From: Nitrososphaeraceae archaeon
GTDB taxonomy: Archaea; Thermoproteota; Nitrososphaeria; Nitrososphaerales; Nitrososphaeraceae
Assembly (NCBI GenBank): GCA_035297365.1
Contig: DATGZA010000067.1
Location: 1-64,000 of the forward strand
Length of the DNA: 64,000 nt
Direction: 5' to 3'
The translations under genes were made by a program, and so were the position numbers. Below, one piece after another: positions 3,184 through 20,568 of this stretch. Each line of letters opens with the position of its first letter. Position 1 is the first letter of the stretch. The notes beneath the pieces were generated by a model, which saw only the letters and a list, made by a program, of their open reading frames with translations, did no database searches and had not been told where the DNA came from.

Positions 3184-4392
3184 TCATTTTTTAGATGATA
3201 GTATCTTATCTGGTAGTTTCCAACCCAGTTTAATCATATAAGGCGAGATAAATGTTGTAATTATGGTCATTGCTCCTATCATGGGAAGAAGAAATGCACT
3301 TGTAAGACCTGTATCTGCTCCACCTTTTGCAACAACAAGTGCTAGTTCTCCTCCTGATGAAGATAAACCAAAAGCTGCCTTCATAGAAGTTGCTGAACTA
3401 AATCGTTGCGATTTTGATGAGAGAAATACCGTAAGAAATTTAGCAGAAATTGAAACTATTACCAAGATTGAAGCTGGAATAATAAATACCACTAATAACG
3501 ACATGTCCATTAGTGCACCAACAGATACAAAAAATATTGCTCCGAACATATCTCTAATTGGAGTTGCTAAAATTCTTGTAACTGCATGAACTTTTGATTC
3601 TGCTATCAGTACACCAGCAAAGAATGCACCTGTTGCTACCGAGATTCCTATTTGATAAGATATAAAGGATAACCCAAATGCCACTCCTAGAACCACTAGT
3701 ATCAGAACCTCATGTTGATTGAATTTGCCAATATAATTGATAAATTTTGGTATAGTTTTTGATCCTAAAAACAAGACTCCAAAAATAAATGCAATTGTTA
3801 TACTAATAGATATTAAAATATCAACAATTGATAGGTCCCCTGATGACGAACTAACAGATTGTAATACTGCCAACATTGAGATAATTAGGATGTCTTCCAT
3901 TACTGCTACTCCCAAGACTATATAGGATGCCTCTTCCTTGATTATATCTAGCTCTTCTAATACCTTCATAATAATGATGGTACTAGTAACTGAAATTGCA
4001 AGTGCAACAAATGCGGAATCGAAAAGTGAAAAATTTAGGAGAAAGAAACTTACAGAAAAACCTACCGCAAATGTTCCAAACGCTTCTGATGTTGCTATTG
4101 TTAATGCTTTCTTTCCAATCTTGCGTAGTTTGTCTATAGGAAATTCCATACCAACAACAAATAACAAAAGAATTATACCCATTTCTGCAAACAAATTCAA
4201 AATATCTGGATTTAATATTAAACTAAATGGTGGAGTATGTGGGCCGATGATTATTCCCGCAAGGATATAACCAATAACTAGCGGTTGTTTAAATTTAAAT
4301 GAGATGAACGCCATGACAGACGCAATAATCATAATAACTGAAAAATCTTGGATGAACTGTCCGACCTCAATACCAACAACCATTATAAACAA
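3184..4392 (-). CDS. Cation:proton antiporter, CPA2 (Kef/NapA-like) family
   Basis: About 12 TM segments; motifs GYILAGIIIGP, AEMGIILLLFVVGME, ISVTSTII, VMEDI, GAFFAG, IFFVSVG. Confidence 0.92.
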   Translation of the reverse strand: MFIMVVGIEVGQFIQDFSVIMIIASVMAFISFKFKQPLVIGYILAGIIIGPHTPPFSLILNPDILNLFAEMGIILLLFVVGMEFPIDKLRKIGKKALTIATSEAFGTFAVGFSVSFFLLNFSLFDSAFVALAISVTSTIIIMKVLEELDIIKEEASYIVLGVAVMEDILIISMLAVLQSVSSSSGDLSIVDILISISITIAFIFGVLFLGSKTIPKFINYIGKFNQHEVLILVVLGVAFGLSFISYQIGISVATGAFFAGVLIAESKVHAVTRILATPIRDMFGAIFFVSVGALMDMSLLVVFIIPASILVIVSISAKFLTVFLSSKSQRFSSATSMKAAFGLSSSGGELALVVAKGGADTGLTSAFLLPMIGAMTIITTFISPYMIKLGWKLPDKILSSKK

Positions 4393-4432
4393 ACTATAAA
4401 AAAAAGGGTATAAGAACTAAAGGAATTCAAAA

Positions 4433-4636
4433 TTAAATATATTTATAGATAAATACTACAAGAATACCCAAAAACCAATATGTTATCTTGTTTACTACAA
4501 CGGATGTTGATAATACTCTTTCCAGTTTATGTTCTTTTAGCAGTCTGCAATAAAATCCAAAAATATCTGTAATCCAGAGTACATTTATCCAAGAAAGCAT
4601 CAAATAATAGATACTTTCTTGCCAGTTTTGTACCAA
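4433..4636 (-). CDS. Doubtful small hydrophobic ORF or gene remnant
   Basis: 67 aa TTG-start ORF just upstream of the antiporter on the same strand; no recognisable motif. Confidence 0.2.
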   Translation of the reverse strand: MVQNWQESIYYLMLSWINVLWITDIFGFYCRLLKEHKLERVLSTSVVVNKITYWFLGILVVFIYKYI

Positions 4637-5174
4637 TCAACGTAAAAAAATCTATTTTGTCATACAATAAAGTGTTGTATCAATTTAGTTACAGATTTAT
4701 ATAAAAATCATTATAGAACTTTGAAACATTATATTTTTATCAAGTCAACTGAATTATTTATGCTTTTATTCTTTGTTTATCTATAGAACTTACAGATTAT
4801 TTTTTATATTTCTTCTATCGGTATAATTTCGTAGTATATTATCCATTTTTTCATTAAAGAAATCTCTTGATATTATAAATAAGAACTTTATAATATCTTA
4901 ATTTGAACATAATTAAAAAGATAAAAAATAATATCAGAATTTATATAAATTCGATTTGGAATAAATATTACTTTACATCCTTTTTAATATAATTGCAAAA
5001 AATATATGTATACATTCCATGTATTATTATGATTTAACGGTCACGTATAAACAATATCCTTCAACAAAATTTTAATTCGGTGTGGATAATATTTTTGTAT
5101 ATTACTCCACTTTCTCAGTTGCCAATACATTTTTAAATTACTGCATATCTAAATTAATTAAGGAATGATCAGAT

Positions 5175-5486
5175 TTAGGTAAAAGAAAAGTTTTGAATGA
5201 GGCTGAGCTTAAGGAGCTTGTAATGCCGCATGAAGGAGAAATGTTCGGAAGGGTTATCAAACTAGTAGGAGGAGATAACGTTATTGTAAAGTGTACTGAT
5301 GGAAAAATTCGTACATGTCGTATTCGTGGAAAAATTAAAAGACGAATGTGGATCAGAGAAAATGATCTAGTTCTTCTTGCTCCATGGGATTTTCAATCTG
5401 ACAAAGCTGATATTGTCTGGAGGTATATTGCCGCCCACGCTGACAAATTAGAACAAGAGGGTCATCTACAAGGGTTGAATAAATAG
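5175..5486 (+). CDS. eif1a: Translation initiation factor aIF-1A
   Basis: GRVIKLVGGDNVIVKCTDGK..CRIRGKIKRRMWIRENDLV..PWDFQSDKADIVWRY is the eIF1A OB fold. The frame stays open upstream of the track start (5193 TTG) through GKRKV to a TTA at 5175, so the true start is uncertain. Confidence 0.95.
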   Translation, partial: LGKRKVLNEAELKELVMPHEGEMFGRVIKLVGGDNVIVKCTDGKIRTCRIRGKIKRRMWIRENDLVLLAPWDFQSDKADIVWRYIAAHADKLEQEGHLQGLNK

Positions 5487-5564
5487 ATATTTATTGTAAC
5501 TATTTTATCGATTGCTTCTCCCAATTTATTGCAATTTGATCTTTAACCAATAACGCTTTATCTT

Positions 5565-6389
5565 TTAAATTCTCACATGAATGTTATTTCTTTTTAAGAA
5601 TCTTTTTACTTTATTTATGGTTGATTTTTCATAATGAAATATCGAGGCAGCTAATGCTGCATCTACATTGGTCTTTTTAAAGACTTCTAGCATATGCATA
5701 GCTTTACCACAGCCACCAGAAGCTATTACAGGAATGCTTACTGTCTTACAAATAACATCATTCAATTTCAAATCATATCCTTCTTCTGTTCCATCTGCAT
5801 CAATACTTGTCAAAAGGATTTCACCGGCACCTAATTTTTCTACTTGTCGCGCCCATTCTATAGCATCTATACCAGTACCCTCTTTTCCACCGTAAATTCT
5901 TACCTCAAACCAGTATTTTTTAATCAGATTGTTCTTATCATATTCTTTTATTATATTCTTTTTTTTGGTATCTAAATCATTATATTTTTTTTTAACGTCG
6001 ATCGCAACAACTATGCATTGTCTTCCAAAAATAGACATCAGCTCTGTGATTAGTTCAGGATTCTTCACCGCAGAAGTATTGATAGAGACTTTATCTGCTC
6101 CGCTTAATAATATATCTCTCGCATCCTCAAGTCTCCTGATTCCGCCACCTACTGTAAATGGAATATCTATTACCCTCGCTACATTTCGTACTACTTTCTT
6201 TATTATCTCGCGTTTCTGTTGTGACGCTGTGATATCCAAGAAGACCAGTTCATCTGCTCCTTGTTGTGTGTATCTATTAGCAAATTCTACCGGATCGCCA
6301 GCATCCTTTACTTCTTTAAACTTTATTCCCTTAACTACTCTTCCATTATCTACATCCAAACAAGGTATGATTCTCTTTGCTAATGTCAT
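5565..6389 (-). CDS. hisF: Imidazole glycerol phosphate synthase cyclase subunit
   Basis: [47 protein letters not shown]. Confidence 0.97.
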
Positions 6390-6392
6390 AAT

Positions 6393-7115
6393 TCAGACAA
6401 CCGTTCTTGCTTTTTTTACATCTATTTTTCCATCATAAATGGACTTTCCAAGGATAACAGCGGAACAACCAATATTTTTTACCCTTATAATATCTTCAAT
6501 ACTTGAAATTCCCCCACTAGCAATTATTTTTGAACCGAAAATATTTGATGCATAAGATAGCATGTTTATATCAGGTCCATTTAAAGTACCATCCCTTTCT
6601 ACTGTAGTTAACAGAAATTCTTTGATTCCTTTTGCCATAAAGAGCTTTACTGCTTCAATTACTTTAAATCCAGAGGACTGTCTCCATCCATCAATCATTA
6701 CTATTCCCTTATTTTGATCTATTGAAACAATTATCTTCTCCAATTTTTCTTTTGGAACTTGTTGAAAGACATTTGGCTGTTTATATGCGAATGTACCGAT
6801 CACAATTTTTTCTGCATTTCCATACAACATCTCATTAATAGCTTCAATTGATCTTATTCCGCCTGCCACTTGAACAGGAATTTTTACTGATTCTATAATT
6901 TTCAATACTATATCTTTGTTGTTTTTGTTGTCATTCCATCCTGTTCTTAATGTAGCATCCAGATCTACAACATGTATTCTGTCAACTTCATAACTTTCAA
7001 AATTTTTTGCAATTTCAATAGGATTATCACTATAAACAATTTTGTTTTGCGGATCTCCCTTAATCAATCTTACAACTTTTCCCTCAAGAATATCAATAGC
7101 AGGTATTATTTTCAT
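6393..7115 (-). CDS. hisA: ProFAR isomerase
   Basis: IIPAIDILEGKVVRL, HVVDLD, QVAGGIRS, RDGTLNGPD, IASGG. Confidence 0.96.
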   Translation of the reverse strand: MKIIPAIDILEGKVVRLIKGDPQNKIVYSDNPIEIAKNFESYEVDRIHVVDLDATLRTGWNDNKNNKDIVLKIIESVKIPVQVAGGIRSIEAINEMLYGNAEKIVIGTFAYKQPNVFQQVPKEKLEKIIVSIDQNKGIVMIDGWRQSSGFKVIEAVKLFMAKGIKEFLLTTVERDGTLNGPDINMLSYASNIFGSKIIASGGISSIEDIIRVKNIGCSAVILGKSIYDGKIDVKKARTVV

Positions 7116-8368: not shown

Positions 8369-9418
8369 TCATACTTTATTTAATACATTTGGTAAATTGT
8401 TAATGCTTTTAATAATAAAATCTGCATTTTTATCTTTAAATTTTTTAATTAATTCTTGTTGATTAGTGCTACAGCCATATACTCCACAAAAAAATACTTT
8501 TGTTCTTTCACCTTTTTTCCTCTTTGTTAAATTTATCTCTCTTTCGGCTCTTTTAGCCATTATTGAATCCTCAATCGAATCTCCACAATATATTATATGG
8601 TCATTAAAACCCATACATTTCATTACTCTTATCAAACCATGTGGATTTGGTTTGGCATATCTTCTTTTTTCATCTTCAAGAAATATGCTCTTATTACCAT
8701 TTAACAATATGAATTTTCTATCTAATGAAAACTTAGCAGCTATCTTACTCCTTCCAGAAACCATTGCAATCTTGCCATTGAATTTATTCGACAAAGCTTT
8801 AATAGTTTTGTTAGTAATTATTATCTTGTCATTTTCTATTAATGGTTTACCAAAATAATAATTTGTATCAAATCCATACTTCATTCTAAATAATTTTTGT
8901 CCATAAAAAAATTCATCAAATACCGTAGAAACTATGCTCTTTCCAACTGGTCCAGGATAATTCAAATCTTTTCTAATTTTATCAAAATCAAAATCATCTT
9001 TCTCTGACAATTTTTTACTAGAGTAATTTAATGATTTTTTCAAAAATTTTTCGACGGAGATTATTCCACTTTCATCCGAATTCTCTGCTGTTCTAAAAAG
9101 AAATCTTTTCAAATCATCATTTTGGAAATTAGAATTTAATAACAAAGTAAGAGTAATAGCATAACTTGTATCTGTATCGTTGTTAAATCCTCCTGACTGT
9201 CTAAATCTCGAAATTATATTGTCTGAAACAATATTTTTAGAACGATATTTTTTCAAATAATTTGTTATAAATTGTGTTGTTTTTTTTATCGCTTCGTTAT
9301 AAGATTTTCTGACATCTATCAATACTCCATCAATATCAACAATAATAGAAGTTACTCGAATGTTGTTATATTTTATATTTGAGGAAATGAAATCTGTTTC
9401 TGTTATTTTTTTATACAT
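8369..9418 (-). CDS. HAD-superfamily hydrolase, probable histidinol-phosphate phosphatase
   Basis: Motifs DIDGVLID, GGFNNDTD, VSGR, KPNP, GDSIED; located between hisC and hisB. Confidence 0.8.
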   Translation of the reverse strand: MYKKITETDFISSNIKYNNIRVTSIIVDIDGVLIDVRKSYNEAIKKTTQFITNYLKKYRSKNIVSDNIISRFRQSGGFNNDTDTSYAITLTLLLNSNFQNDDLKRFLFRTAENSDESGIISVEKFLKKSLNYSSKKLSEKDDFDFDKIRKDLNYPGPVGKSIVSTVFDEFFYGQKLFRMKYGFDTNYYFGKPLIENDKIIITNKTIKALSNKFNGKIAMVSGRSKIAAKFSLDRKFILLNGNKSIFLEDEKRRYAKPNPHGLIRVMKCMGFNDHIIYCGDSIEDSIMAKRAEREINLTKRKKGERTKVFFCGVYGCSTNQQELIKKFKDKNADFIIKSINNLPNVLNKV

Positions 9419-20018: not shown

Positions 20019-20136
20019 TTTGTAGAAGAGTTATTTTGAAAGGACCATTTTATCCAAATTATTTTTGACCATGATTTAATTTTGCATCGTTATAATATCA
20101 TAACGTACATTAAACAGAAGAAATCTCTAATAATAT

Positions 20137-20568
20137 GTGGGGATCCAAACTAAAGCAAATTACGAATTATTACTAGATAGACTTTACAATAAACTAGGTA
20201 CAACTTCAAAAAAAGAAATCTCTAGATTAGAATTACCGCAACCACAGATAATTTGGGTTGGCCAAAGAACAATTTTTAGAAATTTTATGGAATTTCCAAA
20301 AGCATTACGACGGGAGCCAGAAAAAATATTACTTTATTTAAATAAAGAGCTTGCCTCTGCTGGATATATTATTGGCGATAGGGTTATCTTTCTTGGCCGT
20401 AAAGAACGCTCTTCATTTGGTGCTTTACTAGATAGATATGTAAAGGATTATGTTATCTGTCCAGTTTGTAGTAGTCATGACACCAGAACGGAAAAAAACA
20501 AGAAATTGGGGTTTTTGTTGTGCGAAGCGTGTGGGGCCAAATCTTCAATAAAGGGTAATTATGCATAG
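20137..20568 (+). CDS. eif2b: Translation initiation factor aIF-2 beta subunit
   Basis: YELLLDRLY, RTIFRNF, KELASAG, YVICPVCSSHDT...CEACGA zinc ribbon; GTG start. Confidence 0.95.
   Translation: MGIQTKANYELLLDRLYNKLGTTSKKEISRLELPQPQIIWVGQRTIFRNFMEFPKALRREPEKILLYLNKELASAGYIIGDRVIFLGRKERSSFGALLDRYVKDYVICPVCSSHDTRTEKNKKLGFLLCEACGAKSSIKGNYA

Follow-up and report, generated by a model that had tools for sequence, protein, structure and literature searches.

It is textbook knowledge for bacteria (infC) and eukaryotes (eIF1 and eIF5) that start-codon fidelity can be autoregulated by means of a poor start on the factor's own mRNA. The bacterial infC gene, which encodes IF3, has a conserved AUU start and is under translational autocontrol, a connection reportedly described in 1987, and eIF1 is said to be autoregulated through a poor start context and eIF5 through upstream open reading frames (uORFs). 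Ty1 undergoes programmed +1 frameshifting at CUU-AGG-C, and termination-reinitiation coupling reportedly operates in both archaea and bacteria; in its classical form the restart still takes place at a canonical start codon. The eIF1 and eIF5 cases are discussed in PMC6237735, and a full-text literature search returned no archaeal equivalent of such autoregulation. Here we analyze a 64,000-nucleotide stretch of Nitrososphaeraceae DNA (the window) in which the gene for the initiation factor aIF1A presents TTA at the initiator methionine position, and compare this locus with its relatives and with the systems above.

Results

The aIF1A gene and its start region

The aIF1A coding sequence occupies 5175..5486 on the forward strand of the window, with 103 codons and a TAG stop. 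Residues 21-83 of its product match the Pfam eIF-1a family (PF01176) at 78.3 bits (curated cut-off 30.2; E 3.4e-22), and the closest solved chains are those of Pyrococcus abyssi aIF1A in 30S initiation complexes (5jb3 and others; alignment over residues 4-98, E 4.3e-21), with human and yeast eIF1A likewise matching. The most similar named records are those of Nitrososphaeraceae, Ca. Nitrosocosmicus and Nitrososphaera. The genome, which is 97.1% complete, has a single aIF1A gene, which makes this the housekeeping gene rather than an extra paralog.

A preliminary description of this start region is borne out in all of its letters. The frame reads TGA(5166) TCA GAT TTA(5175) GGT AAA AGA AAA GTT TTG(5193), or *SDLGKRKVL, on the forward strand, as do all of the features that follow. 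The TTA at 5175..5177 falls at the initiator-Met position and is our proposed start codon, based on family conservation and the tree constraint described below. An in-frame TGA three codons 5' of it (5166..5168) bounds the frame, in which no canonical start triplet occurs before the TTG of Leu7 (5193..5195). A five-codon uORF, ATG ATC AGA TTT AGG TAA (5165..5182), overlaps aIF1A codons 1-3 and is lineage-specific. The Shine-Dalgarno-like sequence that had been noted 5 nt before the TTA is also present, as AGGAATGAT at 5161-5169, within a leader segment, AAGGAATGAT (5160..5169), that is assigned by its pairing with the 16S tail. Further upstream, a TATA-like box, TTTTTAAA (5131..5138), lies within the element caatACATTTTTAAATTAC, which is conserved across the loci of the genus. 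The aIF2-beta gene of the same window does start at a non-ATG codon, as had been remarked; this is a GTG at 20137, two codons past an in-frame TAA, and an ordinary start.

Codon 1 is TTA or ATA across the family

Alignment of the 5' ends of aIF1A from 128 distinct Nitrososphaeraceae loci reveals TTA at the Met position in 79 and ATA in 49, with a canonical start in none. Thirty further genome loci divide into 23 TTA and 7 ATA, and 80 metagenome loci into 61 TTA, 18 ATA and one ATG, this last locus indicating that a canonical start can be tolerated. All paralogs examined in genomes with two or three aIF1A copies retain the odd codon. Outside of the family, the expectation that thaumarchaeal aIF1A begins with MGKRKVL holds, as ATG, GTG or TTG followed by GKRKV is found in 20/20 loci from eight families in other orders of the class, and in each locus of the sister families f13 (31/31) and f10 (16/16). 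GTA is absent from codon 1 of the family, though starts in f13 are most often GUG (13/31); CTA, which is synonymous with TTA, is likewise absent, and Leu7 and Leu12 use all six leucine codons.

These data bear on the simplest objections, that the TTA is an assembly error or that translation truly begins at the TTG at 5193, with GKRKV as an untranslated leader. A sequencing or assembly error is ruled out by the same codon in 22/22 independently assembled loci of the window's genus. The TTG has in its favor that it is the first canonical triplet in the frame and that several public 97-residue models begin there, e.g., P0014, which starts at the Leu7 TTG. Against this stands the substitution pattern of codons 2-7, which contradicts this start. 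Across the 128 loci, G, K and V are invariant in codons 2-6, with changes at positions 4 and 5 confined to exchanges of R and K, even as four Gly, two Lys, five Arg and four Val codons are in use, and such near-exclusively synonymous variation establishes that codons 2-6 are translated. Codon 7 is TTG in 34 loci, TTA in 42, CTC in 23, CTT in 9, CTG in 14 and CTA in 6, i.e., CTN or TTA in 94/128, and with all six leucine codons in use the TTG at 5193 is an ordinary Leu codon. We therefore give both objections next to no chance of being correct. Extension upstream meets an in-frame stop within five codons of codon 1 in 60/128 family loci, one of which has the stop immediately 5' of an ATA, and 45/128 loci have no ATG, GTG or TTG nearby in any frame. 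Public models of the gene are correspondingly inconsistent, with 97-residue truncations, upstream extensions to 105-159 residues, and a start at codon 1 in only some of them.

Nucleotide-level constraint on codon 1

Substitutions were counted on a gene tree that covers 207 distinct coding sequences, 169 of them family rows, and leaves out codon 1. The third base of codon 1 changes once among these 169 rows, compared to 9-23 changes at each A/G third base in codons 3, 5, 9, 13 and 14, and 9-39 at the third bases of codons 2-20 generally. The first base changes eight times, and these changes are exclusively between A and T. The earlier suggestion of a poor, non-canonical aIF1A start is thus strongly supported, both by conservation (TTA or ATA in 128/128) and by constraint at the level of individual nucleotides, and these patterns strongly support the conclusion that selection keeps codon 1 non-canonical across Nitrososphaeraceae.

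A different reading of the same constraint is that the third-base A is required, with UUA and AUA (collectively, WUA) read in a special way by a C34-modified initiator tRNA, by another CAU-type tRNA, or following A-to-I editing of the mRNA to AUI or UUI. A third-base G is found in 0/128 genome loci and 1/80 metagenome loci, as this reading predicts, and if A were positively required, selection for weakness would not be needed to account for the constraint. We nonetheless consider it very unlikely. A motif scan, which is blind to base modifications, finds one initiator-type anticodon stem-loop, with an ordinary CAT anticodon, and none in which the anticodon is TAT or TAA; this is a weak test, as Aragorn and the Rfam tRNA search list tRNAs incompletely in this genome. 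The TTA is unchanged, with no other letter, in RNA-library contigs from two studies, and these contigs carry no sign of editing at this codon, although they may derive from DNA and may drop minor variants. In addition, the sister lineages use AUG, GUG or UUG at the same site.

The uORF and the frameshift site

The preliminary description had raised the possibility that the uORF takes part in expression of aIF1A, through a +1 shift at TTT-AGG. The uORF indeed exists in the window, from the ATG at 5165 to the TAA ending at 5182, but it is confined to this lineage. An ATG at -10 together with a TTA start is restricted to five loci of the window's immediate clade, which amount to two distinct sequences, and in a sixth relative the ATG is present but shifted to another frame. 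Among 25 distinct leaders of the window's type, 23 have AGG in place of the uORF ATG, and the uORF is found in two. More broadly, a uORF with a canonical start that ends within -9..+8 of codon 1 is present in 67 of the 128 family loci and absent from 61, and 35 of the 49 ATA-type loci have TTG, ATG or GTG at -10; where a uORF is present, its frame and end point vary, with stops at -4, +6 or +12.

These uORFs could in principle support termination-reinitiation, in which ribosomes terminating on the mini-ORF would begin again at the neighboring WUA or GGN, with no need for a proper start. The mini-ORF of the window, the 67 loci with a uORF ending close to codon 1 and the NTG triplets at -10 of most ATA-type loci are all consistent with such a route. 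It fails to account for the 61 loci that have no such uORF, which include 23 of the 25 window-type leaders, or for the 45 in which no frame offers a canonical start nearby, and the variable frame and end of the uORF, including its displacement in the sixth relative, argue further against it. The shortest leaders predicted below are 5-6 nt, such that a triplet at -10 would fall outside of the transcript. On balance, we judge reinitiation to be quite unlikely.

A programmed, Ty1-like +1 frameshift at N-WU-AGG-N, from the uORF frame into that of aIF1A, is less likely still, to the point of being highly improbable. In the window, a shift at TTT-AGG within the uORF does enter the aIF1A frame, and the exact Ty1 heptamer CTTAGGC is present in 19/128 loci, with the donor-frame counts that follow pooled over all 128. 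The AGG is invariant in the shift frame, but automatically so, since WTA is followed by a Gly codon. In 88/128 loci, 32 of them with the stop at -4, the donor frame is interrupted by a stop no more than 30 nt 5' of the AGG, and only 41/128 have an uninterrupted canonical start in this frame. The P-site codon at the putative shift is unconserved (AAT 45, TTT 37, CTT 23, ATT 14, GTT 5, CAT 2 and TAT 2 of 128 loci), and AAT cannot re-pair on ATA; the one ATG that is retained in a different frame adds to this. The closed donor frames and the unconserved P-site codon reject +1 frameshifting as a general mechanism.

Promoter, leader and 16S pairing

With the 5' end placed by the archaeal spacing between TATA box and transcript start, transcription of the window's gene is predicted to begin at ~5160-5165, for a leader of ~10-15 nt. 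Of 185 distinct family loci, 179 have a TTTA[AT] element 32-44 nt 5' of codon 1, from which a leader of 5-17 nt is predicted across the family. Leaderless archaeal mRNAs have a TATA box centered ~26-27 nt before the start codon, and the element in these 179 loci, as predicted from sequence, does not have that spacing.

The region from -22 to -1 is predicted to form a duplex of -9.2 kcal/mol with the 16S 3' tail GGAUCACCUCCU (contig C97), a pairing strength reached by 4.1% of 1035 regions upstream of long ORFs and by 3.0% of random 22-mers. This pairing is uneven among TTA loci, from -3.0 to -11.3 kcal/mol, with some clades at just -3.0 to -3.7, and mean energies of -6.75 (TTA), -6.41 (ATA), -5.69 (ATG) and -7.58 kcal/mol (TTG) reveal no strict link between a weak start and a strong Shine-Dalgarno sequence. 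No conserved RNA structure was detected around the start (alifold energy 0.0, 100 sequences), and no Rfam family matches within 4300-5600.

Other genes

A census of 530 evaluable ortholog pairs, between genome G000 and 1.6 Mb of another genus, finds a conserved N-terminus that precedes any canonical start only in aIF1A and carA, the latter with an apparent near-cognate ATT start in 19/19 loci of the genus. Two short, highly conserved ORFs, on contigs C11 and C85, were flagged in the same census; those raised on C97 and C80 were set aside as probably spurious ORFs within rRNA genes, judging from the 16S end that was read on C97. The gene for aIF1 (SUI1) starts at ATG in 15/15 genus loci, which rules out that it shares the odd start of aIF1A.

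The apparent carA start suggests that weak starts extend beyond fidelity factors, as carA encodes no initiation factor. It is thus in keeping with a simpler view of aIF1A, in which the weak WUA start is real but acts as a fixed throttle on translation per mRNA, with no fidelity feedback; all of the evidence for direct initiation at WUA fits this view equally. What a throttle leaves unexplained is why a core initiation factor should be one of only two cases in 530 genes, and why the odd codon is found in every paralog examined in genomes with two or three copies; moreover, a promoter or Shine-Dalgarno sequence could set the rate instead. We regard a fixed throttle as rather unlikely.

Discussion

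The explanation that we favor, and consider probable though far from assured, is direct initiation at a weak UUA or AUA start that is maintained by selection and that probably gates aIF1A synthesis by start-codon stringency. The aIF1A mRNA would probably be made from its own promoter, with a short leader of ~5-17 nt that often pairs moderately with the 16S 3' end, and the initiator tRNA would presumably be placed directly on the WUA codon. By standard rules, UUA pairs with a CAU anticodon at the middle base only, more poorly than any start in NCBI table 11, in which UUA is not included. This poor match counts against the explanation, as do the absence of GTA at codon 1, the ATG of one family lineage and the weak 16S pairing of some clades. 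Selection that holds the third base at A would keep the start weak, most likely so that aIF1A synthesis depends on the current permissiveness of start-codon selection, by analogy with infC and with eIF1 and eIF5. The start-codon checkpoint itself is run by aIF1 on the 30S subunit, and since aIF1A binds the same subunit, a homeostatic loop would arise. We infer the use of Met-tRNAi at WUA, the length of the leader and the feedback function, including its sign, and infC-like stringency control is, by analogy, our best functional guess. According to PMC4705826, discrimination against an AUU start in Sulfolobus is the work of aIF1, and in its passages on this activity no statement on aIF1A was found. 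The discriminator known from archaea is thus aIF1 rather than aIF1A, and autoregulation by aIF1A and its sign are for this reason conjectural.

A more speculative extension, which we offer tentatively and hold to be doubtful as a whole, is that start-codon stringency governs a second tier of genes in Nitrososphaeraceae. The UUA or AUA start of aIF1A would be the hub and act as an initiation-fidelity homeostat, other genes and virus-like elements would exploit the same lineage-specific capacity for starts at WUA, and at AUU on carA, and the third-base A might be positively read, e.g., by a C34-modified initiator tRNA.

If our explanation is true, a UUA or AUA start kept by selection on aIF1A is the first archaeal candidate for autoregulation of this kind, and it provides a testable handle on how near-cognate codons are treated in archaeal pre-initiation complexes. 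The case also suggests that UUA is usable as a cellular start codon, and if the third-base A proves to be positively read, UUA would be a genuine natural start in a cellular genome. At a practical level, the inconsistent public models of an essential gene in soil ammonia oxidizers indicate that gene callers need an exception for aIF1A.

Set against the known systems, the aIF1A locus resembles Ty1 in that C-TTA-GGC can be read as CTT-AGG-C, with AGG invariant in that frame, in a minority of loci (19/128), but differs in that most loci have no upstream frame to shift from. With termination-reinitiation it shares a mini-OR​F whose end falls close to codon 1 in the window and in roughly half of the family; it differs in that the uORF is missing from the others and is variable in frame and end point. 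As for eIF1 and eIF5, a fidelity-related factor would be adjusted by way of a suboptimal initiation signal on its own mRNA; for those two the signal is a poor-context AUG or uORFs in a scanning system, whereas aIF1A has a non-AUG start and a short, prokaryote-type leader, and aIF1, the homolog of eIF1, has a normal ATG in the window's genus. The resemblance to infC lies in a core initiation-factor gene with a conserved non-canonical start, use of which is expected to depend on selection stringency. The differences from infC are that aIF1A is the orthologue of IF1 and eIF1A, whereas it is another factor that is known for rejecting bad codons, that the system is archaeal, and that the codons are UUA and AUA.

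A TTA codon at the initiator position of aIF1A

The letters that the preliminary description gave for 5160–5195 agree exactly with the window sequence, in which the aIF1A frame reads TGA (5166) TCA GAT TTA (5175) GGT AAA AGA AAA GTT TTG (5193) AAT GAG, that is, a stop followed by SDLGKRKVLNE; a mechanical list of ORFs puts the earliest canonical start of this frame at TTG 5193. On the same (plus) strand we read a Shine-Dalgarno-like AGGAATGAT at 5161–5169 and a uORF, ATG ATC AGA TTT AGG TAA, from ATG 5165. Read from 5175, the frame runs for 103 codons and has a Pfam eIF-1a match (E = 3.4e-22); aIF1A chains of Pyrococcus abyssi from 30S-bound structures match the window protein over residues 4–98 (E = 4.3e-21). 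The gene is single-copy in the window's own genome, which is 97.1% complete, and is flanked on both sides by opposite-strand genes: one for a membrane protein, which ends at 4392, and a pair of ORFs at 5565–7115 whose translations we read as hisF-like and hisA-like. Ahead of the aIF1A promoter, the intergenic DNA (4393–5126) is unusually long (~730 nt) and AT-rich with short ORFs only, and no Rfam family is matched in 4300–5600, which includes this stretch and the aIF1A start.

Codon 1 is TTA or ATA in nearly all of the family

We call the codon at the initiator-Met position codon 1 (TTA 5175 in the window). A first survey of 41 related genomes found aIF1A in 38 and returned 30 loci, with TTA at codon 1 in all 22 from the window's genus and ATG (3), TTG (2), ATA (2) or TTA (1) in the eight from other families of the order. 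An order-wide survey (301 genomes, 293 with an aIF1A match) supplied 80 further start regions; the large sister family f13 contributed another 30 loci (one f13 locus, L249, is from a genome flagged unpublished), as did 80 named genome records theirs, whose titles include Nitrososphaeraceae archaeon, Ca. Nitrosocosmicus sp., Nitrososphaera sp., Ca. Nitrosopolaris sp., Nitrososphaerales archaeon TH1177, two Nitrosopumilus sp. and three Thermoproteota archaeon. Tallied as distinct loci, with identical sequences removed and L022 left out for too little upstream DNA, the window's family (f1) has 47 TTA and 21 ATA in 68 loci and the named Nitrososphaeraceae-like records 32 TTA and 28 ATA in 60, so that a canonical codon 1 occurs in 0 of these 128 family loci. 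Elsewhere in the order, codon 1 is GTG (13), ATG (10) or TTG (8) in the 31 loci of f13, TTG (8), ATG (6) or GTG (2) in the 16 of f10, ATG (5) or ATA (2) in the seven of f4, one TTA and one ATA in f8, ATA in the single loci of f2, f3 and f17, and canonical in all 11 loci of f5, f6, f7, f9, f11, f12, f14, f15 and f16 together. Outside the order, ATG (13), TTG (4) or GTG (3) precedes GKRKV in 20/20 loci from eight further families of the class, so the MGKRKVL N-terminus that the preliminary description gave for this protein is correct; beside the order tally, these loci indicate that the ancestral state is a canonical start at exactly codon 1.

Searching the family as a whole (238 genomes, of which 212 had a match) yields 30 further loci, 23 TTA and 7 ATA; the genome that carries L294, among these, is unpublished. 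The public protein model P0056 served as seed for a metagenome scan, which gives TTA 61, ATA 18 and ATG 1 among the best 80 of 475 relatives, a sample biased towards kin of P0056. The single ATG locus, L315, is 92% identical to P0056 and sits in a starred seven-row clade where its five nearest rows are all ATA; a canonical start can therefore arise and persist in the family, but rarely. Several genera carry two to five aIF1A matches per genome (G155, the complete genome of a family member outside the window's genus, G110, G167 and others, loci L042–L050; genera g27 and g84), with TTA or ATA in every paralog whose start was read and often one of each in the same genome.

Codon 1 is constrained like a start codon

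Across the 128 family loci, codons 2–6 keep G, K, R/K, K/R and V through four Gly, two Lys, five Arg and four Val codons, and residues kept across such varied codons show that GKRKV is translated and that the start is codon 2 or earlier. Codon 7, an ordinary Leu, draws on all six Leu codons in these loci (TTG 34, TTA 42, CTC 23, CTT 9, CTG 14, CTA 6); codon 1 is TTA or ATA only, and CTA, a synonym of TTA, is absent there among the family loci. Since relatives are not independent, changes were counted on a FastTree tree of 207 distinct coding sequences (97 codons, codon 1 excluded), from which rows without full coding sequence, and so all 211-nt and 140-nt fetches, were omitted. Over the whole tree the first base of codon 1 changes 22 times and the third base 4 times; counted over the 169 family rows alone, there is one change at the third base, against eight at the first, the latter exclusively between A and T. 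The A/G third bases of codons 3, 5, 9, 13 and 14 change 15, 15, 9, 23 and 23 times on the same tree, and third bases of codons 2–20 change 9–39 times. A first-base wobble with a fixed U and a fixed third base reads as the signature of a start codon, the oddity being that the fixed third base is A.

Public aIF1A models span 89–162 aa among the best 120 database clusters. P0014 starts at Leu7 TTG, and P0043, P0085, P0097, P0081 and P0056 start at codon 1; P0030 and P0020 start at an upstream ATG, which in P0030 falls, by hand count, downstream of the TATA-like box yet ahead of the predicted start of transcription, and P0064 starts upstream at what is apparently ATT. NCBI 102-aa models have M at codon 1, under which the nearest compared DNA (97–98% identical) has ATA, and ATA is included in the table 11 start list. 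P0056 is also issued by pipelines that as a rule accept only ATG, GTG and TTG.

Leader, uORF and decoding routes

Of 185 distinct family loci, 179 have a TTTA[AT] element 32–44 nt 5' of codon 1. As an archaeal TATA centre lies ~26–27 nt before the transcript start, we predict aIF1A leaders of 5–17 nt, ~12 nt in the window; a leader so short would leave ATG 5165 only a few bases from the 5' end of the RNA. The window leader pairs with the 16S 3' end (...GGATCACCTCCT) at −9.2 kcal/mol; duplexes at least this stable form with 4.1% of 1035 gene upstreams and with 3.0% of random 22-mers. Mean energies are −6.75 for TTA loci (n = 49), −6.41 for ATA (27), −5.69 for ATG (18) and −7.58 for TTG (13) against a background of ~−3.6, with some aIF1A clades at only −3.0 to −3.7. 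No conserved secondary structure is found over −15 to +60 of aIF1A.

An in-frame stop lies within five codons upstream of codon 1 in 60/128 family loci and within 15 codons in 94/128, and in L049 it stands immediately 5' of an ATA codon 1. Only 18/128 have an in-frame ATG, GTG or TTG within 15 codons upstream (in 13, a TTG at −12), and 45/128 have no canonical triplet nearby in any frame.

The preliminary description had raised, as one candidate, that the uORF might feed ribosomes into the aIF1A frame by a Ty1-like +1 shift. The uORF frame always contains AGG, made of the A of codon 1 plus GG; it meets a stop within 30 nt upstream of that AGG in 88/128 loci (32 of these at −4) and has an uninterrupted canonical start in only 41/128, which argues against uORF and frameshift as the family's general mechanism. 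The would-be P-site codon is AAT (45), TTT (37), CTT (23), ATT (14), GTT (5), CAT (2) or TAT (2), and the Ty1 heptamer CTTAGGC occurs in 19/128. A canonical-start uORF in any frame ends between −9 and +8 of codon 1 in 67/128. Among 25 distinct window-type leaders, the −10 triplet is AGG in 23 and ATG in 2 (the latter at loci L001, L002, L006, L155 and L162), and in the metagenome relative L366 one extra base shifts the ATG to another frame, which points to a uORF limited to the window's immediate clade. Of the features to be compared across relatives, the non-canonical codon 1 thus holds, as TTA or ATA in 128/128 loci, and conservation of the uORF does not. Restart assisted by a uORF may serve some ATA-type lineages, where TTG, ATG or GTG at −10 is common (35/49 loci); as a family-wide mechanism it is unlikely.

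When anticodon stems of the initiator type were sought (three G:C pairs, whatever the anticodon), a single plausible initiator tRNA emerged, whose anticodon is CAT; no candidate carried TAT or TAA. The TTA-type aIF1A paralog of G155 is present in twenty RNA runs from five studies; RNA-library contigs of runs X1 and X5 span its start with 0 changed letters, a weak indication that codon 1 is not edited. Run X21 contributes no reads; raw reads of run X22 have depth 0 at 8468–8539, covering TTA 8536–8538, and 2.5–6 just downstream. Over L130:8700–9000 (G155:C1 ~1993700–1994000, plus strand), X22 depth on the same strand climbs from ~6 over 5' aIF1A paralog a to >100 from ~8717, with fragment ends piled up at 8721 and 8752; this rise could reflect either an abundant small RNA or a transcript that starts internally or downstream.

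Other genes with unusual starts

Stop-to-stop ORFs of the window's genome were paired with those from 1.6 Mb of G155, the best-scoring ORF being kept per locus to remove shadow ORFs, and the onset of conserved alignment was compared with the first ATG, GTG or TTG in both genomes. Censuses 1, 2 and 3 gave 311, 375 and 708 best-hit pairs (1394 in total), of which 233, 291 and 501 (1025) survived shadow removal and 115, 140 and 275 (530) were evaluable. Among protein-coding genes, aIF1A (as two paralog pairs) and one carA-like gene stand out clearly; the other flags are ORFs judged to lie inside rRNA genes, two short ORFs and an interrupted carB-like gene. Near-cognate starts are thus rare, yet aIF1A is not alone. 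The carA-like gene (C15:25851–25856 of the window's genome, minus strand; L455:2852–2857; loci L456–L476) has a conserved N-terminus, KIPILYxKYTG..., that no ATG, GTG or TTG precedes. Its AAA ATT CCN is invariant in 19/19 genus loci and G155, with an in-frame stop zero to three codons upstream and, in 15/19 genus loci, no canonical codon ahead of the conserved LLENG, which makes a near-cognate ATT start likely; the gene in sister family f9 has an ATG three codons 5' of this AAA ATT.

The fidelity factor aIF1 (SUI1; C14:134830–135138, plus strand; L141), partner of aIF1A, has an ordinary ATG start, MAVICKKCGLP..., in 15/15 genus loci. A TATA-like GCTTAATAA lies ~30 nt 5' of this ATG in most genomes of the genus, a spacing that suggests a leaderless mRNA, unlike aIF1A with its predicted leader. 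The aIF2-beta gene (20137–20568, plus strand; Pfam eIF-5_eIF-2B, E = 8.2e-30) does begin at a non-ATG codon, as had been described: GTG 20137, an ordinary alternative start, stands two codons past an in-frame TAA and is overlapped by an out-of-frame ATG at 20135. A 57-residue ORF on the minus strand of contig C11 (reverse-complement offset 1525; G155 counterpart in L111–L129) is 91% identical between genera, and its conservation runs 11 codons 5' of the first ATG (10/11 identical); this looks nucleotide-level, perhaps that of a leader or small RNA.

The carB-like gene, which from its translation we take to encode the carbamoyl-phosphate synthase large subunit, is interrupted by a stop-carrying insert that splits ...GEAGE from FDYSGSQ..., 23 nt long in the window's genome (C15:24550–24572, minus strand; L455:1551–1573) and 33 nt in G155 (C1 ~712423–712455; L430). 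It occupies the same codon boundary in 26/30 loci across the order (17–52 nt; L456–L485) and is absent from four, of f5, f9, f12 and f15. Sequence on either side is conserved (GGCGAA|AG... ...CCGCUAA|UU), compensatory changes maintain the pairing of the inner hairpin, and the computed fold for the window's genome has a 4-bp helix flanked by two bulges, with the inferred exon ends within the bulges. We regard it as a candidate bulge-helix-bulge intron in mRNA; a literature search found no published report of it.

A possible stringency loop and its relation to known systems

All loci are most simply explained if ribosomes initiate directly on the UUA or AUA that forms codon 1 of the aIF1A mRNA. 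Such initiation would proceed from a short unstructured leader, often with moderate Shine-Dalgarno pairing, under selection that keeps the third base A. The aIF1-dependent checkpoint that rejects near-cognate codons operates in the pre-initiation complex, of which aIF1A is a part. On this logic, aIF1A synthesis should rise as start-codon stringency drops and fall as stringency climbs, the existence and the direction of this feedback both being argued by analogy. The main rival to such a loop is a plain expression throttle.

Full-text literature searches, with subscription journals outside their scope, found no description of a non-canonical start on an archaeal initiation-factor gene. Look-ups of the terms autoregulation, AUA, UUA and infC return no mention in PMC7531240, and the consulted portion of PMC6237735 mentions, of such loops, only that of eukaryotic eIF1. 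PMC4705826 describes Sulfolobus aIF1 as making the 30S complex reject AUU, and its reference list has papers on infC, eIF1 and eIF5 autoregulation. The feedback logic proposed here would be like that of infC, placed on the IF1/eIF1A orthologue.
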